The notes: generated by a model not told the origin, from the letters alone. Shown: positions 6,253-54,639, counted from the first letter of the stretch. The stretch: DNA of 64,000 bases from an uncultured delta proteobacterium (GCA_963783145.1 CAWAMM010000011.1:271436-335435); one strand, 5' to 3'. A program made the numbers and translations.

Positions 6253-6810
6253 TCAGACCTCCATTATCTCCGCTTCTTTCGCTGCGAGGACTTTATCGAT
6301 CTTCTCGATGAATTCGGTGGTGAACTGCTGCACTTTGGCTTCCGCCGCGTGCAGGTCGTCTTCCGAGATTTTCTTTTCCTTGTGCAGGTCCTTGAGCATG
6401 TCATTGGCGTCGCGCCGATGATTGCGCACGCCCACGCGATGGTCTTCGGCCATTTTCTTGACGTGCTTGACCAGTTCCTTGCGCCGCTCCTGGGTCAGCT
6501 CGGGAATCGGGATTCGGATGATCTTGCCGTCGTTCTGAGGCGTCAAGCCCAGGTCGGAACTTTGGATCGCCTTTTCGATTTCGTGCAGCGCGGTCTTGTC
6601 GTACGGCGTGATGACGATGAGCCTCGGCTCCGGCGCCGCCAGCGAGGCCACCTGGCGAATGGGCGTCTTGGCCCCGTAGTAGTTTACCTGAAGTCCCTCA
6701 ACCAGACCTGTCGACGCGCGCCCGGTCCGGACCTTGGTCAGTTCATGACGGAACGCATCCACAGTCTTTTCCATCTCTGAACGCGCTAATTCAATAACCT
6801 CGCCCTGCAT
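6253..6810 (-). CDS. frr: Ribosome recycling factor
   Basis: VRTGRAS, IPELTQERRKELVK; 185 aa. Confidence 0.98.
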   Translation of the reverse strand: MQGEVIELARSEMEKTVDAFRHELTKVRTGRASTGLVEGLQVNYYGAKTPIRQVASLAAPEPRLIVITPYDKTALHEIEKAIQSSDLGLTPQNDGKIIRIPIPELTQERRKELVKHVKKMAEDHRVGVRNHRRDANDMLKDLHKEKKISEDDLHAAEAKVQQFTTEFIEKIDKVLAAKEAEIMEV

Positions 6811-6811
6811 C

Positions 6812-7576
6812 TTATGCCTCGCTCCCGACCCAGGTGCCGATAGTCTCCCCCATCACGGCTCTTCTTATATTACCCGGTTTGCGCAGATTGAAAACGATAA
6901 TCGGTAAACGATTATCCATACACATCGAGATAGCGGTGGAATCCATCACCTTGAGGCCGCGATTGAGCACATCTATATAGGTCAGCCGATCGAAGCGAAC
7001 CGCGCCGGCTTCTTTCAGGGGATCGCGGTCGTAGACTCCATCTACCGTATGACTCGCTTTAAGGATAACGTCGGCGCCGATTTCGAGCGCGCGCAGACTC
7101 GCCGCGCTGTCGGTGGTGAAGTATGGATTGCCGGTGCCGGCTGCGAACAGAATGACGCGACCTTTCTCGAGGTGGCGCACCGCGCGGCGGCGAATGTACG
7201 ACTCGGCCACCGATTGCATCGCGATCGCCGAGAGCACCCGGGTCGGCACCTTGATGCGCTCCAGCGCATGCTGTAAGGCGAGCGCGTTGATGACCGTCGC
7301 CAGCATACCCATCTGATCGGCGGTCGAGCGATCCATCCCGCGCGCCTCGTACTCGCTGCCACGCATCAGGTTGCCGCCCCCGATTACCATCGCGAGCTGG
7401 ATACCGAGGTCGTAAACTTCCTTGATTTCGAGGGCGATCTCAGCGAGCGCGTCGAGATCGATGCCATTGCTGCCGGCGGGCGCCAAAGCCTCGCCCGAGA
7501 GCTTCAGGAGCACGCGATTGTATCGAGGTAGGGGACTCAAACGGTTTTGAACCTCCGCCATCGTTTGCAATCCCAC
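6812..7576 (-). CDS. pyrH: UMP kinase (true start probably ATG at 7561)
   Basis: [22 protein letters not shown] motifs. Confidence 0.98.
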
Positions 7577-7615
7577 CCAGGATGCCGTCGACCTTGTTAA
7601 GTTAGCGGCTTCCAG

Positions 7616-7650
7616 CCCTCACTCTTGTCTCTCCCAGGAGGGAGAGAAGG
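7616..7650. repeat. REP-like CTCTCCC/GGGAGAG hairpin element
   Basis: CCCTCACTCTTG-TCTCTCCC-AGGA-GGGAGAGA between tsf and pyrH; related copy at 9296-9339. Confidence 0.55.
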
Positions 7651-7679
7651 TAAAGGTAGGCAGCCAGACTTCGGACCCT

Positions 7680-8309
7680 TTAGGACTGGGCGCCGTCTTC
7701 CGTTTTCGCCGCGATACCCTCGCCCAGCTGAAAGCGCACGAAGCGCCGGATATCGATTTTTTCGCCCGATTTGCCGGTGTACTCGCCAATCAGATCGGTG
7801 ATGGTCTTATTGGGATCTTTCACCCAACTTTGCTCCATCAGACAGGAATCTTTGTAAAACTTGTCGAGCTTGCCTTCGACGATCTTCGCGATGACCTGCG
7901 CGGGCTTGCCGCTGCCCTCAGCCTGCGAGGCGTAAATCTGCTTCTCCTGCTCCAGCACGTCGCTCGGGATCTCCTCCCGTTTGATGGAGCGCGGATTAGT
8001 CGCGGCGATCTGCATCGCGATGTCTTTCACCAGGGTCTGGAAATCCGCGCCCTTGGCGAAGAAGTCGGTCTCGCAATTAACCTCGACCAGCACCCCGAGC
8101 TTGCCGCCCGCATGAATATAGGAACCGACCGAGCCTTCCGAGGCGACGCGGCCCGCGCGCTTGGCAGCCGACGCGATGCCTTTCTCACGCAGCCATACGG
8201 TGGCCTTTTCGAGGTCACCCTTGCTCTCGGCCAGCGCCTTTTTGCAATCCATTACACCCGCGCCGGTCTTCTCCCGCAGCTCTCTTACGATATTGGCGTT
8301 GACTTCCAT
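7680..8309 (-). CDS. tsf: Elongation factor Ts (short 209-aa form)
   Basis: LREKTGAGVMDCKKAL, EVNCETDF motifs. Confidence 0.98.
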   Translation of the reverse strand: MEVNANIVRELREKTGAGVMDCKKALAESKGDLEKATVWLREKGIASAAKRAGRVASEGSVGSYIHAGGKLGVLVEVNCETDFFAKGADFQTLVKDIAMQIAATNPRSIKREEIPSDVLEQEKQIYASQAEGSGKPAQVIAKIVEGKLDKFYKDSCLMEQSWVKDPNKTITDLIGEYTGKSGEKIDIRRFVRFQLGEGIAAKTEDGAQS

Positions 8310-32456: not shown

Positions 32457-32888
32457 ATGCGGACCAGCGAAGCTATCGAGCCCGCCCGCCAAATCGAGAA
32501 CGGAAATCGCCAGGATCCCGAGGTTCGGCGGCGATTGTCAGGCCCTGCAATGCGAGCGTTTTTCAATCTGGCCAGGAAATGGAACCTCGGCGTCAATCAA
32601 CAGCGCGGCCTGCTCGGATGGCCGGCGCCGTCCACCTACCACAAATACAAAGCGGGTCAGGTTGGCGGCCTGTCCTTCGATACATTGACCAGAATTTCAC
32701 TGCTGCTGGGCATCTACAAAGCGTTACATATTCTCTACCCGCAGGCCGAATTGGCGGATCAGTGGATTAAGCTGCACAACGCGAATCCGATGTTCGGCGG
32801 TAAAGCGCCGCTCGAGGTGATGATCGACCGCGGCATCGACGGGCTGTTTCAGTTGCGACGTTTGTTGGACGCGCGCCGCGGCGGCTGA
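32457..32888 (+). CDS. Xre/MbcA/ParS-family antitoxin
   Basis: LSGPAMRAFF..W, RISLLLGIYKALHIL, LRRLLDARRG; upstream of RES gene. Confidence 0.88.
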   Translation: MRTSEAIEPARQIENGNRQDPEVRRRLSGPAMRAFFNLARKWNLGVNQQRGLLGWPAPSTYHKYKAGQVGGLSFDTLTRISLLLGIYKALHILYPQAELADQWIKLHNANPMFGGKAPLEVMIDRGIDGLFQLRRLLDARRGG

Positions 32889-32889
32889 C

Positions 32890-33558
32890 CTGAATCCTCC
32901 AATCCATCACTTCAAATGGCGCGGGGCTCATCGGATGATTCCGAGCCGCTATCCGTCGGTTGGAATCCTGGATGAAATCGCAACGCCCGAAGATCTCGCG
33001 GCGATTTTCGAACTCGAAGGATGGACCAACGATCGCATCAGCAACGAGCTCGGCATCCTGCACACGATTTCACCGGAGGAGTGGGTGACGGCACAGCCGA
33101 TGGCCACCGTCATCATGGGCGCGTTTTGTCATCCGCGCCCCGCGGGCGGACGCTTCAATGATCATCGTCGCGGCGCGTGGTATTGCGGCGTCGCGCTCAA
33201 GACCGCGCACGCGGAGGCGATCTTCCATCGAACCCGCGAGCTCGAAGAGATTGGCGGATGGTTCGACACCTCAGTTCAGATGGCCGACTATCGCGCCGAT
33301 TTCAACGCCGATTTCCACGACATTAGCGGGCGCGGATTTTCCGCTTATCTGGGGCCCGATGACTACCGCGCCTCCCAGAAAGTCGCGGCCTCGCTGTTGG
33401 AAGATGGCTCGAACGGAATCGTGTATCCGAGCGTACGCGATCGCGACGGAACATGTCTTGCCTGCTTCAGACCGCGATTGGTTGCGAAGGTCAAGCTCGC
33501 GGCAGCATACGAATATCGATGGTCGCGGACCTCGACCCCCACCGTCCGGAAGCTGTGA
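32890..33558 (+). CDS. RES-domain toxin (NAD+-consuming family); probable CTG start at 32890, first ATG 32935
   Basis: HRMIPSRYP, GRF, AEAIFH, GIVYPSVR (R-E-S residues). Confidence 0.88.
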   Translation: MNPPIHHFKWRGAHRMIPSRYPSVGILDEIATPEDLAAIFELEGWTNDRISNELGILHTISPEEWVTAQPMATVIMGAFCHPRPAGGRFNDHRRGAWYCGVALKTAHAEAIFHRTRELEEIGGWFDTSVQMADYRADFNADFHDISGRGFSAYLGPDDYRASQKVAASLLEDGSNGIVYPSVRDRDGTCLACFRPRLVAKVKLAAAYEYRWSRTSTPTVRKL

Positions 33559-36684: not shown

Positions 36685-36790
36685 GGTAGTGTCTCCTTGC
36701 AGAGTCGATTTTTTCGTATAGCACGAACTGCGCAACGCGGAACAACTGAGATTTTTGAACGATCGGTATGTGTTTGGGAGAGAATCAGCC

Positions 36791-38296
36791 GTGGGCAACT
36801 TCGAGATAGAAGCGGCGCGCACCTATCACGAGATCACCAAGCATTCGTACACCAGCGTGCGCGCGGGGGCGTATGCGCTCGATTGGGACAATCGCCCAGG
36901 GCCCTACAAGATTTATCCCGAAGCGGGAACGATGGCGTTGCCCCGCGATATCGATTTGCCGACGATGCCCACGCTGGAGGCCATCGCGACGCCGGCGGAC
37001 GGGGCCAATGACCTCGACCTGACCACGCTTACGCGGATCCTCTTCTGCGCCAATGGGTTGACGCAACGGCGCAAAGTTGGTGGCGAGGACTATCACTTCC
37101 GCGCCGCAGCCTCGGCGGGCGCGCTTTACCCGATCGAAACCTACATCGCGGCGGCAAATGTCGACGGGATGGAGACCGGGCTTTATCACTTCTCGCCCGC
37201 GGACTTGAAAGTGCGAGGGCTGCGGCGCGGCGATTGGCGCGAGGTGATCGCACATGCGACAGCGCAGCGGCCCTCGATCGCGAATGCGCGCGCGATTCTG
37301 ATCATGAGCGCGATCTTCTGGCGCAGTGCATGGAAATATCACGCCCGCGCGTACCGGTACTGCTTCTGGGATACCGGGACCATCCTGGCGAATCTGCTCG
37401 CAGCGGCGGCCGCCGAGGGTATCAGCGCCGACGTCGTCACGGCCTTCGTCGATCGGGACCTCGAGACGCTGATTGGAGTGGACGGCGAGAGCGAGGGCGC
37501 CATCTGCGTCGTCGCGCTCGGCTCAAGCGGCGCGGCGATGACGAAATCGCCAGAGCTGACAGCGCTGGGAATGGAATCGATCCAGCTTTCGCGCGAGGTC
37601 GTTTACCAGCCGCTGGTCAAAATGCATCACGAGTCGCGCCTGGCTTCGTCGGAGGAAGTGGCGAAGGTGGCGAGCGCCCGCGTCGCGCTGCCCCAGGCCA
37701 CCGGCGGTGAGCAACTGCGTTTCGACGCGATTGAACCTGCCGATGCGCGCGGTCTTGGCGAAACTATACTCCGGCGCGGCTCGGCGCGAGCTTTCGCCCT
37801 CGAGGCAATCGGCGCCGATGAATTGACAACGATTCTTTCGGCGTCGAGCGGGCATCGCAACGTCGATTTTCCGCGCCTGACCGATACTTACCTCATCGTC
37901 AATGCCGTATATGACCTCGCTTGCGGGGCCTACTACTTCAATCGCGAGGCGCAGTCGTTCGAGCTGCTGAAGGCAGGCGATTTTCGCGCCTCGGCCGGCT
38001 ACCTATGCCTCGAGCAGATGCTTGGCTATGAGTGTTCGGCGCTGATTGTCTACATGGCAGACCTCGATCGCGCGCTCGAGGCGCTGGGAAATCGCGGCTA
38101 TCGCGACGCCCATCTGGAAGCCGGAATCCTCGCGGGTCGCGCTTATCTTGCGAGCTATGCGCTCGATCGAGGCGCCACTGGTCTGACCTTCTATGATGAC
38201 GACACGACCAAATTTTTCTCGCCGCACGCCGAAGGAAAGAGTCCGCTTCTGATGGTCGCGCTCGGGGTTCCGCGTTCCACATCGAAATCCGAGTAG
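36791..38296 (+). CDS. SagB/ThcOx-like protein with tandem nitroreductase domains
   Basis: YHEITKH, RAAASAGALYPIE, WKY..RAYRY..WDTG; second domain ILRRGSAR, RGYR...EAG. Confidence 0.88.
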   Translation: MGNFEIEAARTYHEITKHSYTSVRAGAYALDWDNRPGPYKIYPEAGTMALPRDIDLPTMPTLEAIATPADGANDLDLTTLTRILFCANGLTQRRKVGGEDYHFRAAASAGALYPIETYIAAANVDGMETGLYHFSPADLKVRGLRRGDWREVIAHATAQRPSIANARAILIMSAIFWRSAWKYHARAYRYCFWDTGTILANLLAAAAAEGISADVVTAFVDRDLETLIGVDGESEGAICVVALGSSGAAMTKSPELTALGMESIQLSREVVYQPLVKMHHESRLASSEEVAKVASARVALPQATGGEQLRFDAIEPADARGLGETILRRGSARAFALEAIGADELTTILSASSGHRNVDFPRLTDTYLIVNAVYDLACGAYYFNREAQSFELLKAGDFRASAGYLCLEQMLGYECSALIVYMADLDRALEALGNRGYRDAHLEAGILAGRAYLASYALDRGATGLTFYDDDTTKFFSPHAEGKSPLLMVALGVPRSTSKSE

Positions 38297-38457
38297 GCCC
38301 CTGCTGATTGTCTAATCAGCACCTCCACCCTGGTTACTAACTGGATATCCTCCAATCGGCCTAGACTTGATGCTCGACAAATAGGCGGCTGCCTAGGCAC
38401 TGCGCATTTTGCAATGTAGCGACCATTCAAAACGCAACGCAATTTGTTGCAGTTTGG

Positions 38458-38473
38458 TGGCATTCTTCTTGCG
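38458..38473 (+). promoter_or_regulatory. Sigma-54 (-24/-12) promoter
   Basis: TGGCAT-TCTTC-TTGCG with exact GG-N10-GC spacing, about 75 bp upstream of the APC permease; AT-rich region and inverted repeat GCAAC-N7-GTTGC just upstream. Confidence 0.72.
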
Positions 38474-38547
38474 CTGAAGCTCACGACCAAGCTGTCCCCG
38501 GGTGGGAAGTTCTCGTCCCGAAAATAATCGACGGCTAAGGAGGAGAG

Positions 38548-40218
38548 ATGGCTGAGCAAGAAGCGCCAAAGATGAAAGCGACGCTCGGGCTCACGGGAGT
38601 AACCGTGAACGCGATGGCGTTGATCGCGCCAGGAGCATTCCTTTGGATCACGTTCTTCACGCAAGCGAACCAGGCCTATCCATCGGCAATCGCAATGTGG
38701 GCGGGCATTTTCCTGGCCCTTTGCCTCGCGTATGCGACCGCGATTTCGTATTCGGAGCTGGCGAAATTGTATCCCGGCGCGGGTAGCTCGTATTTGTTCG
38801 CCGAGCAGGCATTTTTGAATACGACTAAGGCGTACAGATTTGCGCGCATCGCCAAATTCATAATCGGATGGTCGTCGCATCTCTATTACTGGGTTTATCC
38901 CGGGGTCATGGTCGCCACCATGGGCGTCATGATCGGATACATCGTGGGGACGCTGGCGCCGGGCGTGATGAACGCCGGGGTGCCGGGCCCGGTTTTCATG
39001 GCGTTGATCGCGATCATCTTTTCCTATGTGGTCGCATACATCGCGTTCCGCGGCGTGAATGGCTCGACCGGAGTTAACGTTGCGATTAACGGGATCCAAA
39101 TCGTCGCCCTGTTATTCTTCTCGGCACTCGCGATCGCATACCGCATTTCGCATCCGGAAGGTTCCATGGGCCTCGCGCTCGACCCCAATGGCAACACCAT
39201 TCCGGCGACTCTTCACTACGCTTTGGCGGGAGATCATCCCGCGCACGCTAGCGCGTTGTCGGTTATCTTGCCCCATGGGATGAGCAACACCATCATGCAG
39301 GCCACCGTTGCGATCCTGCTGCTGGTGGGCTTCGAATCAGTCACCGCGATGGGCGAGGAAGCGATTAATCCCAAGAAGGACATTCCGCGCGGCGTCCTGC
39401 TTTCGCTCACCATCCAGGGGCTGTTCTGCTACCTGATCGAATACTTCGCAGCAAACTACTTCCTGAGCAGCGCTTACAGCCTTGCGGAAGCAAAGGGTTC
39501 GGCGGCGCCTATCGGCGACATGATGGTCATCCTTGGGAATGCGCTGCTCGGCGGGCATGGCCAGGCCTTTATGTTGTTGGAAGCGTTCACGGTGTTCCTG
39601 GCTCTCATCGGAACCACCCTGAGCTGCATCAACACTGGCGCGCGGGTGACCTACGCGATGGGTCGTGACGAAGAAGTTCCCGAGCACTTCGGAATGCTGC
39701 ACGGCGAAAACCTGACCCCGCATCGCGCGATCTGGGTCCTCGCTACCATCTCCGCACTGATCGGCGCATATGGCGCACTGTACTATTTCGGTGGCGGCTC
39801 GGCGCCCGATGACAAGACCATCGCGACGCTGCCGCACAGCTTCTGGTACAGCATCGGGATCGGAAGCAATGCGTACCTCGCGTCGCTGCCCAACGGATTG
39901 CTGTTGGTGACGTTGCTCTCTAACTTCGGCACCTTCCTGCTCTACGGACTCACTAACATCGTTTGCATCATCGCTTTCAAGGAGCATCACGAGTTCAATG
40001 GCTTCAAACATATGATCGTGCCAGTCTTCGGAGCGTTGGCGAACTTTGCCTGCCTTGCGTTCTATATCATCGGCCCGCTGGAGGGGATCGGTAGCCCGAA
40101 AGAGCCGCTGATCGCAGTCGGGATCTCGATAATCTTCGGCGCCTACGGAGCCTTCTACTTCGTGCGCAACTCCAAGAAGAGAGGCCGGAGCACGCTGATG
40201 GTCGCGAAGCCTGCGTAG
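38548..40218 (+). CDS. APC-superfamily amino acid/amine permease
   Basis: About 12 TMs; YSELAKLYPGAGSSY, GFESVTAMGEEAINPKKDIP, ARVTYAMGRD; AAGGAGG RBS. Confidence 0.92.
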   Translation: MAEQEAPKMKATLGLTGVTVNAMALIAPGAFLWITFFTQANQAYPSAIAMWAGIFLALCLAYATAISYSELAKLYPGAGSSYLFAEQAFLNTTKAYRFARIAKFIIGWSSHLYYWVYPGVMVATMGVMIGYIVGTLAPGVMNAGVPGPVFMALIAIIFSYVVAYIAFRGVNGSTGVNVAINGIQIVALLFFSALAIAYRISHPEGSMGLALDPNGNTIPATLHYALAGDHPAHASALSVILPHGMSNTIMQATVAILLLVGFESVTAMGEEAINPKKDIPRGVLLSLTIQGLFCYLIEYFAANYFLSSAYSLAEAKGSAAPIGDMMVILGNALLGGHGQAFMLLEAFTVFLALIGTTLSCINTGARVTYAMGRDEEVPEHFGMLHGENLTPHRAIWVLATISALIGAYGALYYFGGGSAPDDKTIATLPHSFWYSIGIGSNAYLASLPNGLLLVTLLSNFGTFLLYGLTNIVCIIAFKEHHEFNGFKHMIVPVFGALANFACLAFYIIGPLEGIGSPKEPLIAVGISIIFGAYGAFYFVRNSKKRGRSTLMVAKPA

Positions 40219-40297
40219 TCGCAAATCAACTCGGTAATCCCGGGGGCGGTCCGCCAATAAGCGGCATCGCCCCCGAGGCATTTGCACGGAAAGTGGG

Positions 40298-41152
40298 TTG
40301 GGAGCTTTGGCCAAAGAGGATTCTGAACCGGATGTCGCGGGCGAACCAATTCCCGCCGCGTTCGAGTTGGCGATGCTATCTGACGTTGGCGGGAATCGCT
40401 CCAACAACGAGGATTTCTGCGGGCATCTGGTCGAGGGACCCGAGGAGATCGTGTTCGCGGTCGCCGATGGCGTCGGCGGCTACGAAGGTGGCGAAGTCGC
40501 CAGCAAAATGGCGGTCGAGACTACGCTCCGGGCTTACCGCGAAAGTCCCCGCGAATGGGGCGCCAGCAAGCGACTCCATCGGGCGGTCCAGAACGCCAAT
40601 ATCGAAGTTTACAATTTTTCATCCACGGTCCCTGAACTGCGCAGGATGGCGACCACGTTGACCGCAGTCGCAATCCAGAACGGCATGCTCAATGCCGCCC
40701 ACATCGGGGATTGCAGGCTCTACCTCCTCCGCGCCGGCAAGATCACCCAGATGAGCAAAGATCACACGATGGTCGGTGAACGGGTGCGCATGGGTCTGAT
40801 GACGGAGGCCCGCGCCAAACATCATCCGGATCGCTCGGCGCTGCTGCGCAGCCTCGGCCGAGAGCTGATCGTATCGATCGATCGCATCACGATGGCGCTG
40901 CGCAAGGGCGATGAGCTGTTTCTGTGCAGCGATGGCCTCTATACCGTCCTCGAGCCCGCCGATCTGGTTTCCCTCACGCGGGAGTTTTCCGCCGAAGACG
41001 CCTGTGAAAAACTGATCCGCAATGCGAATAACCTCGGCACCAGCGATAACCTTACGGTCGCGCTGTTCAGGCAATTGGCCGAAACGCCGGAACTCGAGCC
41101 GCCCTCCGGATTGCTGGGGCGCCTAAAGCACCTGTTTTCGCGGCGAGGCTGA
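40298..41152 (+). CDS. PP2C/PPM-family Ser/Thr protein phosphatase
   Basis: RSNNED, VADGVGG, HIGDCRLY, LCSDGL, SDNLT. Confidence 0.95.
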   Translation: MGALAKEDSEPDVAGEPIPAAFELAMLSDVGGNRSNNEDFCGHLVEGPEEIVFAVADGVGGYEGGEVASKMAVETTLRAYRESPREWGASKRLHRAVQNANIEVYNFSSTVPELRRMATTLTAVAIQNGMLNAAHIGDCRLYLLRAGKITQMSKDHTMVGERVRMGLMTEARAKHHPDRSALLRSLGRELIVSIDRITMALRKGDELFLCSDGLYTVLEPADLVSLTREFSAEDACEKLIRNANNLGTSDNLTVALFRQLAETPELEPPSGLLGRLKHLFSRRG

Positions 41153-41227
41153 ATCTCGGCTCATTGATCGAGTCTTCGCGCGGGTGTTATGGTCCGCGCC
41201 CATGCGCTCGGGAGCGGCGCCAATCTC

Positions 41228-42244
41228 ATGCGCGAGGTCAGTGTTGGTGAGAAGCTTGATCAGTACCAATTGACCGAGGTGATCGCGCGCAGCGGGATGG
41301 CGTCGATTTTTAAAGCGATCGATGCGCGTTCCGGCCAGACCGTCGCTATCAAAGTGCCCTACGTCCAGTTCGAAAGCGACGTGGTCTTCTACTCACGTTT
41401 TCAGCGCGAGGAGGAAGTCGGCCGCCGGCTCGACAATCCGCACATCGTCAAAGTTCTCACCCCCGAAAAGAAAAGCCGGATGTATATCGCGATGGAGTAC
41501 ATCGACGGCATTTCGCTGCGTGCGATCATGCGCGACTTCCGCCCCATGCCGGTCGACAAGGCACTCGGCTATGCGCGCCAGCTTTGCGATGCGCTGGTCT
41601 ACATGCATGGCGAGGGCGTGGTCCATCGCGATCTCAAGCCGGAAAACGTTCTGGTGACCGAGGATGGGGTCCTGAAAATAATGGACTTCGGCATCGCGCT
41701 CGATGAATCGGCGCGCCGGCTCACCTGGTCGGGCCTTTCGTCGACTATCGGCACGCCTGACTACATGGCGCCGGAACAGGTCAGCGGACGGCGCGGCGAC
41801 GTGCGCACCGACATTTACGCGATGGGCACCATTCTCTACGAGATGTTGACCGGCGAGATGCCTTACCCGAGCGCGAACGTCTACGCGATGATGAAGGCCA
41901 AAACCACCGAGGATCCGCAACCGCCGACCCGCTTTCGCCCCGACCTCGATCCCCATCTCGAAGAGATCATCCTGCACGCGATCGAGCGCTCGCCGCGGGA
42001 CCGCTACGCCACCACCGAGGAGATGCTCAAGGAATTGCAGGATCCGTCGCAGGTCGTGATCCACAATCGCGCGCTGGCGCTGCATCCGACCAGCCTCAAA
42101 AAGCGGCGTTTCCGCCGAGCGCTCGCGGTCGGCGGGTTCTTCGTGTCGTTGATCGCGGCGTTCCTGTTTCTGATTTGGCTCGCCAATCGGTATCCCGCGC
42201 CGGCCGGCAAGCCGCACCACTCGTATCGAGGTGAGGTGAAATGA
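41228..42244 (+). CDS. Hanks-type Ser/Thr kinase with C-terminal TM anchor (alternative start 41189)
   Basis: VAIK, HRDLKPEN, DFG, GTPDYMAPE; one TM helix then a ~19-aa tail. Confidence 0.96.
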   Translation: MREVSVGEKLDQYQLTEVIARSGMASIFKAIDARSGQTVAIKVPYVQFESDVVFYSRFQREEEVGRRLDNPHIVKVLTPEKKSRMYIAMEYIDGISLRAIMRDFRPMPVDKALGYARQLCDALVYMHGEGVVHRDLKPENVLVTEDGVLKIMDFGIALDESARRLTWSGLSSTIGTPDYMAPEQVSGRRGDVRTDIYAMGTILYEMLTGEMPYPSANVYAMMKAKTTEDPQPPTRFRPDLDPHLEEIILHAIERSPRDRYATTEEMLKELQDPSQVVIHNRALALHPTSLKKRRFRRALAVGGFFVSLIAAFLFLIWLANRYPAPAGKPHHSYRGEVK

Positions 42245-43677
42245 TCCGCTACCGCAGAGTATTTTCCGTGACCATCGCCGCGGCTGCCATGGCGCTCGCT
42301 TCACTTCCTTCACTGGCGCATGCGCAAAACGCCGGCGCGCCGTTCCCGCTCGATCAATCGCTCAACCTGGCCTGGGTGCTGATCGCGGGATTCCTGGTGA
42401 TGTTCATGCAGGTCGGCTTCGCGATGCTGGAGACCGGCTTCACCCGCGCCAAGAACGCGGTCAACACGATGGCGATGAACTTCATCATCTACCCGATCGG
42501 CATCGTCGGCTTCTGGCTCACCGGTTACGGACTCATGATGGGAGGCGTCGGGCACTGGTCGTCGCTCGGCGCGACCGGGCTCGAGCACTACGAGGTTTCG
42601 ATCACCCTGGGCGGACATGCTTATGGACTGCTCGGTGCGAGCAAGTTCGCGCTGCTTAACGTCAGTCACGATCCTTCGAGTCTCGCGATGTTCCTGTTCG
42701 CGGTCGTCTTCATGGATACCGCCGCGACCATTCCGACCGGTGCGATGGCGGAGCGCTGGAAGTTTTCCGCCTTCGTGATTTATGGGTTCTTCATCTCGAT
42801 GTTCCTCTACCCACTGTATGGAAACTGGGTGTGGGGCGGCGGATGGCTTTCGCAGCTCGGCGTCAACCTTGGTCTGGGACATGGGCACGTCGATTTCGCA
42901 GGATCGTCGGTGGTGCATATGACCGGCGGAATCACCGGTCTGGCCGGCGCGATCGTGCTCGGGCCGAGGATCGGAAAATTTCGCCGCGACGGGCAGTTGA
43001 CCGCGATCCCCGGCCATAACATTCCGATGGCGATGATCGGCACGCTGATCCTCGCGTTCGGATGGTTCGGCTTCAACGCGGGCTCGACTCTGGCGGCCTC
43101 GGATCCCAGGATCGGCTTGATCGCGGCGAATACCATGATCGCCTCGGCCGCGGGAGCGCTCTCGGCGCTCTTTTATCTGTGGTTTCGCTTCCACAAGCCC
43201 GATGTCTCGATGGCTTGCAACGGGATGCTGGGCGGACTGGTCGCGATCACCGCGCCGTGCGCATTTGTCACGCCGCTGGCCGCGCTGTTGATCGGCGTGA
43301 TCGCGGGCTTGCTGGTGGTCGCCTTGGTGCTGGTGCTGGAGCGGCGCTTCCGCATCGACGATCCGGTTGGCGCGATCGCGGTCCATGGCGGCTGCGGGAT
43401 TTGGGGCGCGCTCGCGGTGGGAATCTTCGCGGACGGCAGCTATGGCGACGGCTGGAACGCGGTGGCCGGACCGGTCCGGGGCATCCTGTACGGAGATGGC
43501 GGACAATTCGTCGCGCAACTGATCGGCGTCACCGTCAACATCGTCGTGGTGTTCGGACTGGCGCTCGCGTTCTTCATGATCATCGAACGCACCCTCGGAA
43601 ATCGCGTCATTCCGGAAGTTGAGTGGAGTGGCCTCGACTCGCTCGAAATGGGCACCGACGCATACACCAACGTGTAG
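42241..43677 (+). CDS. amt: Ammonium transporter (Amt family)
   Basis: FMQVGFAMLETG, DFAGSSVVH, GWFGFNAGS, DDPVGAIAVHG; ATGA overlap with kinase stop. Confidence 0.96.
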   Translation: MIRYRRVFSVTIAAAAMALASLPSLAHAQNAGAPFPLDQSLNLAWVLIAGFLVMFMQVGFAMLETGFTRAKNAVNTMAMNFIIYPIGIVGFWLTGYGLMMGGVGHWSSLGATGLEHYEVSITLGGHAYGLLGASKFALLNVSHDPSSLAMFLFAVVFMDTAATIPTGAMAERWKFSAFVIYGFFISMFLYPLYGNWVWGGGWLSQLGVNLGLGHGHVDFAGSSVVHMTGGITGLAGAIVLGPRIGKFRRDGQLTAIPGHNIPMAMIGTLILAFGWFGFNAGSTLAASDPRIGLIAANTMIASAAGALSALFYLWFRFHKPDVSMACNGMLGGLVAITAPCAFVTPLAALLIGVIAGLLVVALVLVLERRFRIDDPVGAIAVHGGCGIWGALAVGIFADGSYGDGWNAVAGPVRGILYGDGGQFVAQLIGVTVNIVVVFGLALAFFMIIERTLGNRVIPEVEWSGLDSLEMGTDAYTNV

Positions 43678-43754
43678 TCTCGAGGCGAGCGCGCATCCGC
43701 TCCGGTAGAATCAGATCGTTCGTCTCAACTTCAACCGCTCAGACGGAGGTCTGC

Positions 43755-44453
43755 ATGATTCTGGAGAGACGGAGATTTATCGGGCGCGCGTGCAAAACCG
43801 CGCTCGCGGTGGCCGGCGGCTACGTGGTCGCGGTCAACCCCGCGCAGGCGGCGGAGGACGAAAAGGGCGAGGGCGACCTTGGACCCATCGAGGATCTGAT
43901 GCGCGAGCATGGTGTCCTGCGCCGCGTGCTGCTGATCTATGAGGAAGGGTTGCGCAGGATCGCCGCGCACCAGGATTTTCCCGGCAATCCGTTTCTCACC
44001 GGCGCCCAGCTCATCCGCAAATTCATCGAGGATTATCACGAGAAGAACGAGGAGAAATTTATCTTCCCGAAGCTGCACAATGCTCTTGGCGAGGCCGGCC
44101 GCGACGTTCCGATCCTGCTCCAGCAGCATCAGGCGGGCCGGCAGCTTACCGACATTATAATTCGCGTCTCGACTTCGAATGCGAAAGACACCCGCCTCGT
44201 CGATCCAGTCACGCAGTTCATCCGGATGTATCGGCCGCATGCCGCGCGCGAAGACACCATCGTGTTTCCCGCGTTCCATCAGGCGGTCAGCGAAAAGGAG
44301 TTCGACGCCGTCGGCGAGCAAATGGAGAAGCAGGAGGAGAAACTCTTCGGCGAGGGCGGCTTCGCGAAGATCGTCGAAGCGGTCGCCGAGGAGGAACGCG
44401 CGTTGGACATCTACGAACTGGACCGCTTCACTCCCAAACTCGAAGCCAATTGA
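43755..44453 (+). CDS. Hemerythrin-like domain protein with Tat signal
   Basis: ERRRFI + AQA cleavage site; LMREH, YHEKNEE, QH, HAAREDTIVFP; GGAGGT RBS. Confidence 0.85.
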   Translation: MILERRRFIGRACKTALAVAGGYVVAVNPAQAAEDEKGEGDLGPIEDLMREHGVLRRVLLIYEEGLRRIAAHQDFPGNPFLTGAQLIRKFIEDYHEKNEEKFIFPKLHNALGEAGRDVPILLQQHQAGRQLTDIIIRVSTSNAKDTRLVDPVTQFIRMYRPHAAREDTIVFPAFHQAVSEKEFDAVGEQMEKQEEKLFGEGGFAKIVEAVAEEERALDIYELDRFTPKLEAN

Positions 44454-45532
44454 ATAACTCAACGTTACGGATCACGAAAATCATTGCCGCGCTGATGTTC
44501 CTGAGCTATGCGCTCTGCCCTGCGGCGATCGCCGCGGACGTATGCTCACCCTTCGGCGATACTCCCGCGCAGATCAATCACGGCGTGATCGCGAGCTCAT
44601 TCGCAGCGCACAATCCGATTTGCTTCGGCGGCCGCGTGCTCGGTCCGTGGAAGGATTCTGACGGCTCCGATCGCTATGCCTGCATCTACGAACCCGCGGG
44701 GCGTAGCCGCGACAATCCGCTCCCGCTGGTGGTGTTCATCCATGGCTCGATCGCGACGGCGGATTCGATCAAGTTGACCGGCCTGGTCGGCGAGATTGGC
44801 AAGGCTGACCTTGGTGGGAAGAAGCCCGGCTTCATTCTCCTCGCGCCCGAGGGGCGCTACACCGCGCACTACTATCCCGGCCTCGATTCCAACGCGATGG
44901 GGTGGGACAACTGGTACCGTCAGCTGAGCCCCTCGGGTGATGTGACCGTTGGTGGAACGACCTACAAGGAAAACGTTGACGCGGCGACCATCGATCATTT
45001 TATTCAGGACGAAACTGCGACTGGCGAGGTCGATCCGGTGCGCATCTACCTGACCGGATGGTCCAACGGCGCAGCGATGGCGCTGCTGTATGCGCTGAGC
45101 CGCCAATCGATCGCGGCGGCGGCGGTCTACTCGGCGCCCGATCCTTTCGGCGCCTTCGATGATCCATGTCCGCAGGCGCCGGTGACCCGCGCGCCGACCT
45201 CAAATGCGCAGGTGCAGATCTTTAATCCGCGCATTCCGCTGCTGCACGTGCGCAACGGTTGCGACATCGGTGGCATCTGTCCGAACGGGAATAATTTTGC
45301 GCGGCAGATGCGCGCAATCGGGGTCAGCCTCGACGATGTGATCCTCGATCCCGAAGGCAAACCCGTTACCTCCTGCGACGACACTTGCGGCACCAGCCCG
45401 AGGGCGGCGGGCGACGTCGGCGCCGGCGGAACAATTCGCGGCATCCTGCATCATATGCAGTGGCCGAAAGCATCGAATTCGCGGATGCTGGAGTTCATGA
45501 AGCAGCATCCGCTGCCTGCGGCGGCAAAGTAG
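44450..45532 (+). CDS. Secreted alpha/beta hydrolase (PHB depolymerase/LpqC-like esterase)
   Basis: Signal peptide; PLVVFIHG, IYLTGWSNGA nucleophile elbow, several Cys. Confidence 0.78.
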   Translation: MNNSTLRITKIIAALMFLSYALCPAAIAADVCSPFGDTPAQINHGVIASSFAAHNPICFGGRVLGPWKDSDGSDRYACIYEPAGRSRDNPLPLVVFIHGSIATADSIKLTGLVGEIGKADLGGKKPGFILLAPEGRYTAHYYPGLDSNAMGWDNWYRQLSPSGDVTVGGTTYKENVDAATIDHFIQDETATGEVDPVRIYLTGWSNGAAMALLYALSRQSIAAAAVYSAPDPFGAFDDPCPQAPVTRAPTSNAQVQIFNPRIPLLHVRNGCDIGGICPNGNNFARQMRAIGVSLDDVILDPEGKPVTSCDDTCGTSPRAAGDVGAGGTIRGILHHMQWPKASNSRMLEFMKQHPLPAAAK

Positions 45533-45650
45533 GATCGCATTCACGGTGGCAGCGGCACCCGCTTGACGTAACTTTTCACTCTCTGCGATAGGTGAAGTAA
45601 CAAATCGAAACCACAGCCGGGTCGCCGCGACTCGCGCGGGAGCAGAAGCC

Positions 45651-46457
45651 ATGGCCTACAGCGAAATTCTCTTCGAGAAGCAGAACGCGATCGCGACCGT
45701 CACCATCAATCGTCCACACGCGATGAACTCCGGCACCATCAGGACCTGGGGCGAAATCGCCGATGCATTTCATGATGCCGAGCGCGACAACGACATCCGG
45801 GTGGTAGTCCTGACCGGCGCGGGCCGCGCGTTTTGCGCCGGCGACGACGTGAAGGAGATTTTCCTGAATCCCGAGTTTCGCGATGCGAAACCCAACGCCG
45901 CCAAGGAGATCGAGGAGTGGCGCTCGCATGCGCCGGTCGCGCTGGATTTTCTCATCGAGTATCCCAAGCCCACCATCGCGTCGGTCAACGGCGCCGCAGT
46001 CGGCTACGGATGCGACATCGCGCTGATGTGCGACATGCGGGTGTGCTCGGATCAAGCGCGCTTCGGCGAGGTTTTCATCCGCCGCGGATTGATTCCCGAG
46101 GCGGGCGGCCTGCTGGTGTTGCCGCGGCTGGTCGGTCTGGCGCGCGCCTACGAATTGATCCTTACCGGCGACATCATCGATGCGAAGGAAGCCGAGCGCA
46201 TCGGGATGGTGAATCGCGTGGTGCCGCATGCGCAACTCGGCGAGGCGACGATGGCGCTCGCGACCAAGCTCGCGCAACAGGCGCCGCTCGCCCAGCGGCT
46301 CGCGAAGGAAGCGCTGCGGGTGGGACTCAATCTCAACTTGCCGTACTTTTATGGCTACCAGCGTCACGGCCAGCATCTGATGTTCGGGACCAAGGACCAC
46401 CTCGAAGGCGCGAAGTCGTTCGTTGAGAAGCGCCCCGCAGACTTCAAGGGCGAATGA
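45651..46457 (+). CDS. Enoyl-CoA hydratase/isomerase family
   Basis: GAGRAFCAGDD, KPTIASVNGAAVGYG, GLIPE. Confidence 0.93.
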   Translation: MAYSEILFEKQNAIATVTINRPHAMNSGTIRTWGEIADAFHDAERDNDIRVVVLTGAGRAFCAGDDVKEIFLNPEFRDAKPNAAKEIEEWRSHAPVALDFLIEYPKPTIASVNGAAVGYGCDIALMCDMRVCSDQARFGEVFIRRGLIPEAGGLLVLPRLVGLARAYELILTGDIIDAKEAERIGMVNRVVPHAQLGEATMALATKLAQQAPLAQRLAKEALRVGLNLNLPYFYGYQRHGQHLMFGTKDHLEGAKSFVEKRPADFKGE

Positions 46458-46488
46458 GCGTCGCGACTCACCACGCACATAGGATGAA

Positions 46489-47763
46489 ATGATCGCGCGA
46501 CTGGGGAGGGTCGCGAAGGCGTGGTTTTGTATCGCGCTGCTGACAGCCGCAGTCGTGTGCGCGCAGGAGCCCACGCCGATTGTCGATACGGCGCCGGTCG
46601 GTACCCGGCAGAACTACTTCCGCACGCCCTACCGCGAAGGGTCGTTCCGCCACATGGATCAGATCTTCCCGTTCCACGTGGTGCATCGCGCGGGCGCGGT
46701 GTCGGAACTGCCGCGCGCCGATCGCCAGATGGGCGAAGTTACTTACCAATGGAAGGGTCGCGCGCATACCCTCGAGCAGCTGCTGCAGCAGACCAAAACC
46801 ACCGGCTTCCTCGTGATCAAGGATGGCAAGATCGTGCAGGAGCGTTACTTCGGCGGCGCGAGCGAGAGCTCGACCTTCACCTCGATGTCGGTGGCGAAGT
46901 CGTTCACCTCGACTCTGGTCGGCCTCGCGCTGGCCGACGGAAAAATCAAAAGCCTCGACGATCCCATCACCGATTATGTGCCGGAGCTGGAGCGCACCGG
47001 CTACGATGGCGTGCCGATCAAGGCAATCCTCCAGATGTCCTCGGGGGTGAAGTTCAGCGAGCGCTACGTGTGGGGGCTCTACTCGGACATGGACTTGATG
47101 TTCGAGCGCGCGATGGTGGATGAGGCGGCGCCGCTCAACGACTATCTGAAGGGCCTGGTCCGAGGCCTACCGCCAGGCACAAAATTTAACTACAAGGGCT
47201 CGGATACGCAGGCGCTCGGATGGATGGTGCGCCACGTCACCGATGAATCACTCGCCGATTATCTTTCGGAAAAAGTCTGGCAGCCGATGGGCATGGAGCG
47301 TGACGCGTTTTGGAATACCGATGCGCCCGGCCCCAACGGCATGGAGGCCGCGTTCACCTGCCTCAACGCGACCCTGCGCGACTTCGGCCGCTTCGGGCTG
47401 ATGTTTCTGAATCATGGTAAATGGAACGGCAAGCAGATCGTGCCCGCCGATTGGGTCGAGCGCGCGACGGTGCCCGATGATCCGCAGGTGCAGCCGGGCC
47501 GGCTCATCAAGCATTCGACCCTCGGTTACGGATATCAATGGTGGACCTTTCCCGACGACGGCGCGTATTCCGCGGAGGGAATATATTTCCAGTTCATCTT
47601 CGTGAATCCGAAAGAGAACCTGGTCATCGTAAAAACCAGCGCCTACGATCGTCCGTGGGATGCCGATTTCGAAGGGCAGACTTACACCGCTTTTTGGGCC
47701 ATCGCGGGGGCTCTGCGAGACAATCACGCCCCGAATCCCCTGAGGCTTAGGAACTTAGCCTGA
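46489..47763 (+). CDS. Secreted serine hydrolase (class C beta-lactamase/NylB-like)
   Basis: SMSVAKS (SxxK), LQMSSG, FNY, YGYQWW. Confidence 0.88.
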   Translation: MIARLGRVAKAWFCIALLTAAVVCAQEPTPIVDTAPVGTRQNYFRTPYREGSFRHMDQIFPFHVVHRAGAVSELPRADRQMGEVTYQWKGRAHTLEQLLQQTKTTGFLVIKDGKIVQERYFGGASESSTFTSMSVAKSFTSTLVGLALADGKIKSLDDPITDYVPELERTGYDGVPIKAILQMSSGVKFSERYVWGLYSDMDLMFERAMVDEAAPLNDYLKGLVRGLPPGTKFNYKGSDTQALGWMVRHVTDESLADYLSEKVWQPMGMERDAFWNTDAPGPNGMEAAFTCLNATLRDFGRFGLMFLNHGKWNGKQIVPADWVERATVPDDPQVQPGRLIKHSTLGYGYQWWTFPDDGAYSAEGIYFQFIFVNPKENLVIVKTSAYDRPWDADFEGQTYTAFWAIAGALRDNHAPNPLRLRNLA

Positions 47764-47968: not shown

Positions 47969-48531
47969 ATGAAATTAGGCTCCGAAGCGCTGGAGCTCGA
48001 CGCCATCGACCTCCAGATTCTCGAGACTCTGCAGGACCAGGGGCGCATCCCTCTGGTCAAGCTCGGCGAGCAGGTCGGCCTGTCGTCGCCGTCGGTGATC
48101 GATCGGGTCAAGAAACTCGAAGATAGCGGAATCATCACCGGCTATCAGGCGACCGTCGACGCGCGCAAACTCGGCAAGGATGTCACCGCGTTCATCGGCG
48201 TTTCGATCGGACATCCGAAGGCGACCGCGACTTTCGAGCACACCGTCGCGCTGGTCGACGACGTGCTGGAATGTCATCACGTCACCGGGGAACACTCGCT
48301 GTTACTCAAGATCAAGACCGACAACACTTCGTCGCTGGAGCGGCTCATCAGCACGATCCGCTCGATCGAGGGAGTGTCGCGAACGGAAACCATGGTGGTG
48401 CTGTCGACGCATAAGGAGCGTGCGGCCATTTCGGTCGGCGCCGCGGATGAACCCGAAGTGGCCGGCAATGGTCACGCGCGCAAGCATCGCCACGGCATCG
48501 TGAAAACGATCGTCGCGGACCCTAAGAGGGT

Positions 48532-48535
<4 letters not shown>
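47969..48535 (+). CDS. Lrp/AsnC-family regulator
   Basis: [33 protein letters not shown]. Confidence 0.93.
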
Positions 48536-53097
<4,562 letters not shown>

Positions 53098-53190
53098 GCG
53101 GCGAAATGGCGGAGGCGGAGGGCTATCGACAGGTTTCGGGAAAAGGAAGAATCGGTTTTCGATGAGCGAGATTCGGCGGGTCGGGATTAA

Positions 53191-54639
53191 ATGGGCAAGA
53201 TAACGGGCTTCATGGAGATCAAACGGGAAACGCCCTCGCGGCGGCCCGTCAAGGAGCGCCTCCAGGACTGGCGCGAATATGACCTCAAGATGCCCGAGGA
53301 CAAGCTGCGCGCGCAGGGAGCGCGTTGCATGGATTGCGGGATCCCCTTCTGCCACAAGGGTTGTCCGCTCGGCAACATCATTCCCGATTGGAACGATCTG
53401 ATTTACCGCGGGCGCTGGAAGGACGCCATCGACCGCCTCCATTCGACCAACAATTTCCCCGAGTTCACCGGGCGCGTGTGTCCGGCGCCCTGCGAAGAAG
53501 CCTGCGTGCTCAACATCAACAACGATCCCGTCACCATCAAGCTGATCGAAAAGAACATCATCGATCACGCGTGGTCAGAGGGTTGGGTCACCGCGCAACC
53601 CGCGCCGCGCGCGACCGGGAAGCGCGTCGCAGTGGTCGGCTCGGGCCCCGCCGGCCTCGCCTGCGCGCAGCAGCTCGCGCGCGCCGGTCACGCCGTCACC
53701 TTGTATGAGCGGTCGGATCGCGTCGGCGGCCTGCTGATGTACGGCATTCCCGATTTCAAAATGGAGAAGCATCTGGTCCATCGCCGCGTCGAGCAGATGA
53801 AGGCCGAGGGCGTCGAGTTTGTGACTAGCTGTCGCGTCGGCATCGATATCACCGCCGATGAGATGCGCGCGAAGTTCGATGCGATCGCGCTCACGATGGG
53901 GGCGACCAAGCCGCGCGATCTTCCGATTCCGGGGCGCGAGCTCAAGGGCGTCCACTACGCGATGGATTTCCTGCCGCTGCAGAACAAGCGCAATCAGGGC
54001 GACATCATTCCCGAGGACATTTTCATCACGGCGAAGAATAAGCGCGTGGTGATCCTCGGCGGCGGCGATACTGGCTCCGATTGCCTCGGCACCAGCAATC
54101 GGCAGGGCGCGCTCAGCGTGCATCAGTATGAGTTGCTCCCGATGCCGCCCGACTCTCGCACAATTGAGATGCCGTGGCCCGATTGGCCGATGATCCTGCG
54201 CACGTCAACCTCGCATGAGGAGGGTGTGAATCGCGACTGGAGCATCAACACCAAAAAGTTTTCCGGCGAGCACGGTCGCGTCACCAAGCTGCACGGCATC
54301 CGGCTGGAGTGGGAACGCGCCTCCGATGGGCGGATGGCGATGAAGGAAATCGAGGGCAGCGACTTCGAGCTCGATTGCGACCTGGTGCTGCTCGCACTGG
54401 GATTCCTTGGCCCCGAGCCGGACGGAATCATCTCGCAGCTCGGCCTCAAGCTCGATCCTCGCAGCAACGTGCTATGCGATAACTACCAGTCTAGCGTGCC
54501 GGGAGTCTTCGCGGCGGGCGATACGCGTCGAGGACAGTCGCTGGTGGTCTGGGCGATTTGGGAAGGCCGCGAATGTGCGCGTGCCGTCGACGCGTACCTG
54601 ATGGGCGAGTCGTTTCTGCCGGCCAGTCCCGAGCTCTAG
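53191..54639 (+). CDS. gltD: Glutamate synthase small subunit
   Basis: [34 protein letters not shown]. Confidence 0.99.

Follow-up and report, generated by a model that had tools for sequence, protein, structure and literature searches.

A conserved permease-phosphatase-kinase module beside an ammonium transporter gene in Candidatus Binataceae and its possible role in nitrogen uptake

In prokaryotes, ammonium uptake is controlled after translation by PII/GlnK proteins, whereas plants and fungi are known to use Ser/Thr phosphorylation. In these eukaryotes, the yeast kinase Npr1 acts on Mep2 and Gap1, and the plant kinase CIPK23 acts on AMT1. A Hanks kinase is linked to nitrogen-sensing membrane proteins in the actinobacterial GlnH-GlnX-PknG-GarA/OdhI system, in which it controls glutamate/ammonium metabolism. 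The cyanobacterial PII cycle involves Ser49 of PII and the PPM phosphatase PphA, the kinase being described as unidentified in PMC8042125. Moreover, the Amt proteins Ks-Amt5 and Sd-Amt1 are presented as sensors in PMC11152129 and PMC5764959. Here we describe a gene cluster from a Candidatus Binataceae genome (5.87 Mb, 95.7% complete) in which an Amt gene follows genes for an APC-superfamily permease, a PP2C-type phosphatase and a Hanks-type Ser/Thr kinase. The cluster lies in a stretch of 64,000 nucleotides (GCA_963783145.1 CAWAMM010000011.1:271436-335435), hereafter the window.

The original prediction for this locus held that a dedicated kinase/phosphatase pair replaces GlnK as the gate of Amt, or that Amt is a sensor feeding the kinase. 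Judged by its synteny, the cluster is a real and conserved phospho-module with a predicted link to nitrogen. We tentatively favor, with a probability of about 0.38, the reading that the four genes may form one sigma-54-dependent nitrogen-scavenging unit, in which kinase and PP2C would tune the co-made transporters by reversible phosphorylation.

The cluster and its promoter

The four genes are co-oriented and each has a Pfam hit. The first (38548-40218, +) encodes an APC-superfamily permease of 556 amino acids with about 12-14 transmembrane (TM) segments (AA_permease_2, 76.5 bits against a cut-off of 27), and the second (40298-41152, +) a soluble PP2C/PPM Ser/Thr phosphatase devoid of hydrophobic segments (PP2C_2, 70.5 bits; cut-off 24). 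They are followed by genes for a tail-anchored Hanks-type Ser/Thr kinase of 338 amino acids (41228-42244, +; Pkinase, 161.6 bits) and for an Amt-family ammonium transporter of 478 amino acids with a signal peptide (42241-43677, +), which scores 387 bits with Ammonium_transp (cut-off 23.2) and 396.2 with TIGR00836 (cut-off 343.3). The kinase start was set by its orthologues at M14 (41228) and not at the opening of the reading frame (41189), and the start of PP2C is ambiguous between TTG 40298 and ATG 40373. The ATGA at 42241-42244 holds both the stop codon of the kinase gene and the start codon of amt, and a Shine-Dalgarno-like GAGGTGA lies just 5' of it. No intrinsic terminator was found in the intergenic positions among the four genes.

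At the head of the cluster lies a sigma-54 type -24/-12 element, TGGCATTCTTCTTGCG (38458-38473, +), with GG at 38459-60 and GC at 38471-72. It has the GG-N10-GC spacing, falls within the TGGCAY-N5-YTGC pattern and is located 74 nt 5' of the permease ATG. A loose version of the motif is not enriched genome-wide (49 found, about 57 expected), so that a single match means little and the promoter call rests on position and conservation. In fact, 61 of 62 related loci have an element scoring at least 9 of 10 at this position, compared with 2.5% of shuffled upstream regions, and where a PII or second amt gene lies upstream, the element sits between that gene and the permease. Outside Binataceae, a full-score element precedes the permease in 9 of 67 loci (shuffles, 0.2%). 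The genome also has rpoN (209 bits). The arrangement read in the original prediction, that is, four co-oriented genes behind a -24/-12 promoter with an ATGA overlap between kinase and amt, is therefore present, and the sigma-54 promoter is well supported by its conservation.

An imperfect dyad, TGCC-N9-CGCA (38390-38406, +), about 55-68 nt 5' of the -24 element, is a candidate site for a sigma-54 activator. A TGC-N9-13-GCA dyad was found upstream in 58 of 60 Binataceae loci (17% in shuffles), with 52 of the matches 51-60 nt before the -24 position. A regulon scan of the same genome with motif plus dyad was dropped, as it returned two unrelated matches and missed the window's own imperfect dyad. 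From the gene content we infer nitrogen control of the cluster; co-transcription of the four genes and their nitrogen induction are predicted. One soil metatranscriptome run (X20) yielded two 151-nt contigs matching the inside of the permease gene with zero mismatches (39141-39429), nothing usable elsewhere and no contig bridging two cluster genes, which is too little to claim transcription or co-transcription.

Conservation of the unit in Binataceae and other lineages

In a set of 41 relatives, 20 of 24 family members have the permease, compared with none of 16 genomes from other families of the class; the corresponding figures for the kinase are 21/24 and 1/16, the single outside copy being 48% identical. 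The order permease-PP2C-kinase-amt is kept in 13 of the 16 Binataceae genomes fetched, two of which have a porin gene inserted. One genome (G009) has kinase and amt only, with no orthologue of the module PP2C, and another (G010) has permease-PP2C-kinase without amt. In a further genome (G011), permease and PP2C share a contig and the kinase stands alone on a different one. Both G010 and G011 hold a single AmtB-like Amt and no cluster-type Amt. In G007 and G008, which belong to the same genus, the matches to permease, kinase and amt are split and broken by stop codons; these assemblies consist of few contigs, are 69-74% complete, and the breaks are probably assembly noise rather than pseudogenes.

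A larger set of loci comes from a collection of species-representative genomes, in which we considered the best 80 of 219 kinase loci, the denominators counting those with enough flanking sequence. The amt gene directly follows the kinase in 76 of 78 loci (75 by script and L071 by eye), with the kinase stop overlapping the amt start in 46 of 66 (by start-codon choice). PP2C directly precedes the kinase in 66 of 75, lies further upstream in six and is absent from three, and the permease is found upstream of the kinase in 57 of 61. Additional genes occur in part of the loci. Upstream, 14 of 61 have a second amt (40% identical). An OmpL-like porin separates permease and PP2C in at least seven, with another three recognized by Pfam, and three loci have a second APC permease between PP2C and kinase. 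In 8 of 80, the permease is immediately preceded by a PII gene with the T-loop YRGSEY (Ser49). Tandem PP2C genes are present in two loci, L047 (4844-6883) and L071, both of which also have the Ser49 PII gene. The four-gene unit and its promoter are therefore kept in relatives, and the gene order reaches beyond the genome of the window.

The permease subfamily extends further, with members whose source names are Dehalococcoidia, Anaerolineae, Chloroflexota, Ktedonobacterales, Armatimonadota and Rectinemataceae. By scanning metagenome contigs with an alignment of seven distant permeases, we obtained 80 loci with permeases 40-49% identical to that of the window and a G+C content of 0.42-0.69. In the 42 of these with at least 2.3 kb downstream, the permease is immediately followed by both PP2C and kinase in 27, by the kinase only in six, by PP2C only in three and by neither in six. 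The trio was found in a locus (L191) whose permease is 100% identical to one named Armatimonadota at NCBI, and also in loci whose permeases share 82% identity with ones named Anaerolineae and Rectinemataceae. All but one of 34 complete module kinases are 319-341 amino acids long and end in a C-terminal TM helix, the remaining one being a mis-extracted fragment. A maximum-likelihood tree placed 33 module kinases in one clade (100/99) with 10 kinases from Binataceae and 3 module-like ones, and left the 8 other Hanks kinases outside it. A fusion of the module PP2C to HEAT repeats occurs in a single locus outside Binataceae (L139, 9684-10997).

The gene after the kinase, in 28 non-Binataceae loci, is glnA in 14, gltB in four, and another gene or none in ten. 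At least one nitrogen-assimilation gene was present in 28 of 42 loci of at least 6 kb (glnA in 17, PII in 11, gltB in seven, amt in five and glnE in two). We rejected the possibility that these glnA genes encode GS-like PuuA/GmaS enzymes, as four of six pass the GlnA type I cut-off and none attains the cut-off for gamma-glutamylputrescine or type III enzymes. Such synteny across lineages indicates that the conserved unit is permease, PP2C and tail-anchored kinase in ammonium-assimilation neighborhoods, and that it is the permease, and not Amt, that constantly accompanies the kinase/phosphatase pair. Recurrence of the module outside Binataceae and its link to glnA hold for at least three to four named phyla. 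The amt gene behind the kinase is, as far as gene order tells, the Binataceae form of the module. Of the original prediction, the link between phosphorylation and nitrogen is thus strongly suggested by synteny in several lineages; the replacement of GlnK and the role of Amt as the key partner were not supported.

Synteny of this kind might reflect shared regulation only, with kinase and PP2C as ordinary members of a nitrogen-starvation regulon that act on unrelated targets. Hanks kinases are often pleiotropic, and the genome of the window holds few such enzymes (about five kinase and two PP2C matches), so that each may serve many targets. The accessory genes of the cluster also vary (porin, second permease, second amt, PII). 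We nevertheless consider it very unlikely that a dedicated coupling is lacking: the order permease-PP2C-kinase persists between permeases as divergent as those of the metagenome loci, the kinase/amt start-stop overlap recurs in most Binataceae loci, and the module kinases make up one well-supported clade.

The same neighborhoods bear on a second explanation, namely, that the permease, perhaps with Amt, reports its substrate to the kinase, which would signal to cytosolic PII, GS, GOGAT or a regulator, with PP2C resetting the system. Precedents for such transceptors are Ssy1/Gap1 of yeast and GlnH-GlnX-PknG-GarA of actinobacteria. In its favor, the kinase lacks a sensor domain, and no neighbor is more constant than the permease. 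The kinase gene is followed by glnA or gltB in 18 of 28 non-Binataceae loci, and a PII gene was located in the module or beside it in 8 of 80 Binataceae loci and, among metagenome loci of at least 6 kb, in 11 of 42. On the other hand, no gene for an FHA or other adaptor was seen among the neighbors scanned, the adjoining glnA and gltB may only share a regulon, and the permease may still transport. Overall, we regard transceptor signaling as somewhat unlikely, although worth serious consideration. A broader proposal, in which permease, PP2C and kinase would be a widespread bacterial nutrient transceptor, the prokaryotic equivalent of Npr1- or CIPK23-type control, that sets Amt, PII and GS/GOGAT activity through reversible Ser/Thr phosphorylation, with a kinase clade that includes the Ser49-PII kinase type, seems to us plainly unlikely.

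Possible targets of the kinase and phosphatase

The window has no PII gene, as the original prediction had noted, but a search for other amt and glnK copies showed that the genome does. Two PII genes (120 and 107 bits) are located at C11:197978 and C11:102462, outside the window (C11:271436-335435); both are orphans with the T-loop YRGAEY. A GlnD-type gene (138 bits) and a GlnE-type gene are also present, so that the classical PII system is in place. None of the three amt genes of the genome adjoins a PII gene, and therefore the missing glnK neighbor is the rule of this genome and not a peculiarity of the locus. These genes, as well as the PII gene directly upstream of the permease in some related loci and the PII-amt pairs beside the module in other lineages (L151, L152), argue against the replacement of GlnK by the kinase/phosphatase pair. 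Elsewhere in the genome, a second amt (40-42% identical; L008, G000:C9:369000-382000) is preceded by a gene for a LuxR-type response regulator and followed by an unrelated APC permease of 693 amino acids, which makes a second amt-plus-APC pairing in the same genome.

The PII protein itself could be the substrate, kinase and PP2C acting on T-loop Ser49 as in cyanobacteria and PII gating Amt and other targets. The YRGSEY loop occurs not only in the head-of-cluster PII of eight Binataceae loci but also in the amt-paired PII of L151 and L152, and the module PP2C resembles the cyanobacterial phosphatase tPphA (2j82, 101.9 bits) about as well as it resembles other bacterial PPMs. Moreover, the PII kinase of cyanobacteria is still unidentified according to PMC8042125. 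We find this explanation improbable all the same, as the genome of the window has GlnD and no Ser49 PII, 72 of 80 Binataceae loci have no PII in the cluster, and most module-linked PII proteins of other lineages are devoid of Ser49. For the same reason Ser49 was rejected as a general mark of module-linked PII, most module-linked T-loops of other lineages having sequences such as YRGENV, YGGREY or WRGEEY. In some non-Binataceae loci, genes of the PII family with unusual T-loops were also observed between PP2C and kinase or directly after the permease (L136, L179, L190, L169 and L174).

As for Amt, both pore histidines reported in the original prediction are confirmed by alignment: H226 and H382 match the histidine pair of 6eu6 and 8qj3, H382 being invariant and H226 nearly so. 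Among solved structures, 6eu6 (233 bits) and 8qj3/8qpf (205 bits) come closest, followed by 2b2f (168) and AmtB (about 160), and the residue numbering of the 6eu6 and 8qj3/8qpf chains matches that of Ks-Amt5 and Sd-Amt1 as given in PMC11152129. According to the same source, the N1/N2 ligand set of Sd-Amt1 comprises Q22, E29, N45, D48, T104 and S107, plus the relay K44, and the N1/N2 class of Amts also contains true transporters. The window Amt keeps the N1-site residues Q57, F60, E64, N80, T163 and T166 and the exit Asn N327 in the alignment. The N2 Asp (D48 of Sd-Amt1) and the relay Lys (K44) are replaced by Ile83 and Met79, so that the full N1/N2 set is not present and the protein is not a canonical ammonium receptor. 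It also has no fused transducer: it ends three residues past the conserved AY of the C-terminal region, and the kinase is a separate reading frame.

These data bear directly on the strict form of the original prediction, in which the pair gates Amt in place of GlnK or Amt senses ammonium and drives the kinase. In its favor are the translational coupling of kinase and amt, the absence of PII next to any amt of the genome, the kinship with sensor Amts (6eu6 and 8qj3) and the kept N1-site residues and exit Asn. Yet PII, GlnD and GlnE are all retained, some relatives have PII inside the cluster, N2 Asp and relay Lys are missing, membership of the N1/N2 class is shared with transporters (PMC11152129), and amt accompanies the module in only 5 of 42 loci of other lineages, where the module instead stands beside glnA or gltB. 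Additionally, two Binataceae genera keep permease, PP2C and kinase without a cluster-type Amt. Amt as the key partner or sensor is therefore not supported, and we hold the strict form to be highly improbable.

A less exclusive role for Amt might be reflected in its cytoplasmic residues. In 67 kinase-linked Amts, position 463 (EVEW-S-GLD) is occupied by S in 51, T in 15 and N in one, and position 472 (EMG-T-DAY) by S in 57 and T in 10, and Thr68 in the first cytoplasmic loop is invariant. Four non-linked Amt relatives have E/I/Q/E at position 463 and F/E/C/A at 472. A phospho-switch would be expected to show such C-terminal positions, nearly restricted to hydroxyl residues here and acidic in part of the non-linked Amts. 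As the sequences compared are closely related, we take them as a lead only.

The kinase motifs K42 (VAIK), H133-R134-D135, D153-F154-G155 and A181-P182-E183 are invariant in 67 orthologues, and a single hydrophobic segment (residues 295-324 of 338) is followed by about 18 residues, which confirms the intact catalytic core, the single TM anchor and the lack of an extracellular sensor domain described in the original prediction. Against the Stk1/PknB PASTA model NF033483 the protein scores 281.9 bits (cut-off 450), with a match to the kinase domain alone and no PASTA repeats; its best solved relative is PknB (178 bits). In Binataceae, the TM helix and tail follow the pattern FFxSL..IWLANRYPA..YRG, of which the tail WLANRYPA..YRG is near-invariant, and mean column identity is 0.74 for helix plus tail, compared with 0.68 in the linker and 0.85 in the domain. 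In module kinases of other lineages, at most a few residues follow the TM helix. The extra conserved tail thus coincides with the lineage where amt follows the kinase, a coincidence that, being seen in one lineage only, is a hint at most.

In the PP2C, motifs ED, DGVGG, DG and DN, which we take to be the metal-binding motifs, are readable. The protein reaches 213.7 bits with the Stp1/IreP equivalog NF033484, below its cut-off of 230, and Stp1 is its best solved relative (124 bits). The permease misses every named APC model (BcaP, cationic, L-type, 2A0306); the best of them, TIGR00909, gives 101 bits against a cut-off of 556.8, and solved relatives give 26 bits at most. Its identity across Binataceae genera is 77-97%, and its subfamily is narrow: a set of 1.84 billion proteins holds 244 representatives at E<=1e-30, of which many are fragments. 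Conserved Ser/Thr residues were also sought in its cytoplasmic parts, but those conserved fall in TM segments or general APC motifs and are uninformative. A Rosetta-stone search for permease fusions among longer proteins found none, which is weak evidence.

Two further observations concern the permease subfamily. A paralogue 76-77% identical to the cluster permease (L196, G000:C3:79000-95000, 6361-8052, -) has its own -24/-12 motif and adjoins genes for a LytTR response regulator, a LytS-like histidine kinase and an NtrC-type sigma-54 activator; no PP2C or kinase gene was found beside it. A subfamily member also appears in a eukaryotic protein set (Cyanophora paradoxa; P0167 and others), with the same N-terminal NSMALIAPGAFLW signature.

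Taken together, a membrane-tethered kinase without a sensor domain, its conserved TM helix and tail, and the Amt positions dominated by Ser/Thr are suggestive of transporters as targets. Under our preferred reading, the evolutionary core would be the distinctive APC-type permease, the soluble PP2C and a Hanks kinase of 320-340 residues with a single C-terminal membrane helix, rather than Amt. Nitrogen limitation would lead an enhancer-binding protein to fire the -24/-12 promoter. The tail-anchored kinase, made beside the transporters, would then phosphorylate their cytoplasmic parts, those of the permease and, in Binataceae, also the C-terminal region of Amt, and PP2C would reverse the modification. 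Such a cycle would tune uptake after translation, on top of the kept PII/GlnD system and not in its place.

Several points weigh against phosphorylation of the transporters. The genes after the kinase in other phyla encode cytosolic enzymes (GS, GOGAT), and a cytosolic target or a mere shared regulon fits this as well as transporter gating does. In several lineages, PII genes are part of the module or adjoin it, which fits PII as a substrate. Within Binataceae, one species keeps kinase and amt without permease or module PP2C and another genome has the kinase alone, far from its partners, so that no single partner is obligatory. The conserved Ser/Thr residues of Amt were drawn from close relatives (68-93% identical) and are therefore weak evidence. 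Finally, related genomes are not independent, and kinship makes the Binataceae counts overstate their independence.

Downstream of the cluster, the window has genes for an lrp/asnC-type regulator and the glutamate synthase subunits gltB and gltD (47969-54639, +; by Pfam), which are conserved neighbors: of 69 related loci with 5 kb or more of downstream sequence, 56 have lrp-gltB after amt. In this genus, genes for a hemerythrin, an esterase, an uncharacterized protein and a beta-lactamase-fold protein (43623-47763) lie between amt and lrp-gltBD; in most other Binataceae this insert is absent and lrp-gltB directly follows amt. Directly 5' of the promoter is a gene for a nitroreductase-family protein of 513 amino acids (36755-38296, +), found at the same place in many Binataceae loci and not seen beside the module in other lineages. 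An Xre-like antitoxin and RES-domain toxin pair is located further upstream (32457-33558, +).

Comparison with described systems

A full-text search of the literature gave no paper that ties a bacterial Hanks kinase/PP2C pair to Amt, to this permease or to glnA, in line with the original prediction, which knew of no characterized bacterial system with this layout. The main text of the Binatota genome paper has no mention of ammonium, Amt, kinase, nitrogen or permease. If our preferred reading is correct, the cluster would offer a directly testable bacterial case of Ser/Thr phosphorylation control of nitrogen uptake, and would show what a narrow subfamily of permeases and a clade of minimal kinases with a tail anchor do. 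The module may also bear on how PII proteins become phosphorylated. As it is found in abundant uncultured bacteria of soil, Binataceae and Chloroflexota among them, it may matter for soil nitrogen turnover.

The glnK-amtB pair of E. coli and most prokaryotes resembles the cluster in that amt is co-transcribed (here by inference) and translationally coupled with a small regulatory partner under nitrogen control. That partner is PII, whereas here it is a membrane-anchored Ser/Thr kinase with a PP2C, and PII is encoded elsewhere in the genome. The Npr1 and CIPK23 systems likewise join one kinase with transporters of the Amt and APC families, and conserved hydroxyl residues are found in the Amt C-terminal region here; in contrast, our case is a predicted bacterial operon with a tail-anchored PknB-like kinase and an Amt that has no long C-terminal extension.

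With the cyanobacterial PII cycle the module shares the link between a PPM phosphatase and nitrogen, and a Ser49-type PII is present in the cluster of some relatives, but the genome of the window has GlnD and no Ser49 PII. In the sensor proteins Ks-Amt5 and Sd-Amt1, Amt is also paired with a signaling enzyme, and the N1 residues and exit Asn are common to the window Amt; here, however, the transducer is a separate gene, and the N2 Asp and Lys relay are replaced (I83, M79). The actinobacterial GlnH-GlnX-PknG-GarA/OdhI system differs in that PknG is soluble, multidomain and of another family, and no gene for an FHA substrate was seen among the neighbors scanned here. Adjacent kinase and PPM genes are found in PknB/PstP and Stk1/Stp1 as well, but the kinase described here ends in a membrane anchor, has no PASTA or extracellular domains, and stands in a context of nitrogen uptake rather than cell-wall growth. 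The module thus joins known kinds of systems, that is, Hanks kinase/PP2C pairs and the eukaryotic control of Amt and APC permeases by phosphorylation, and is not a new category.

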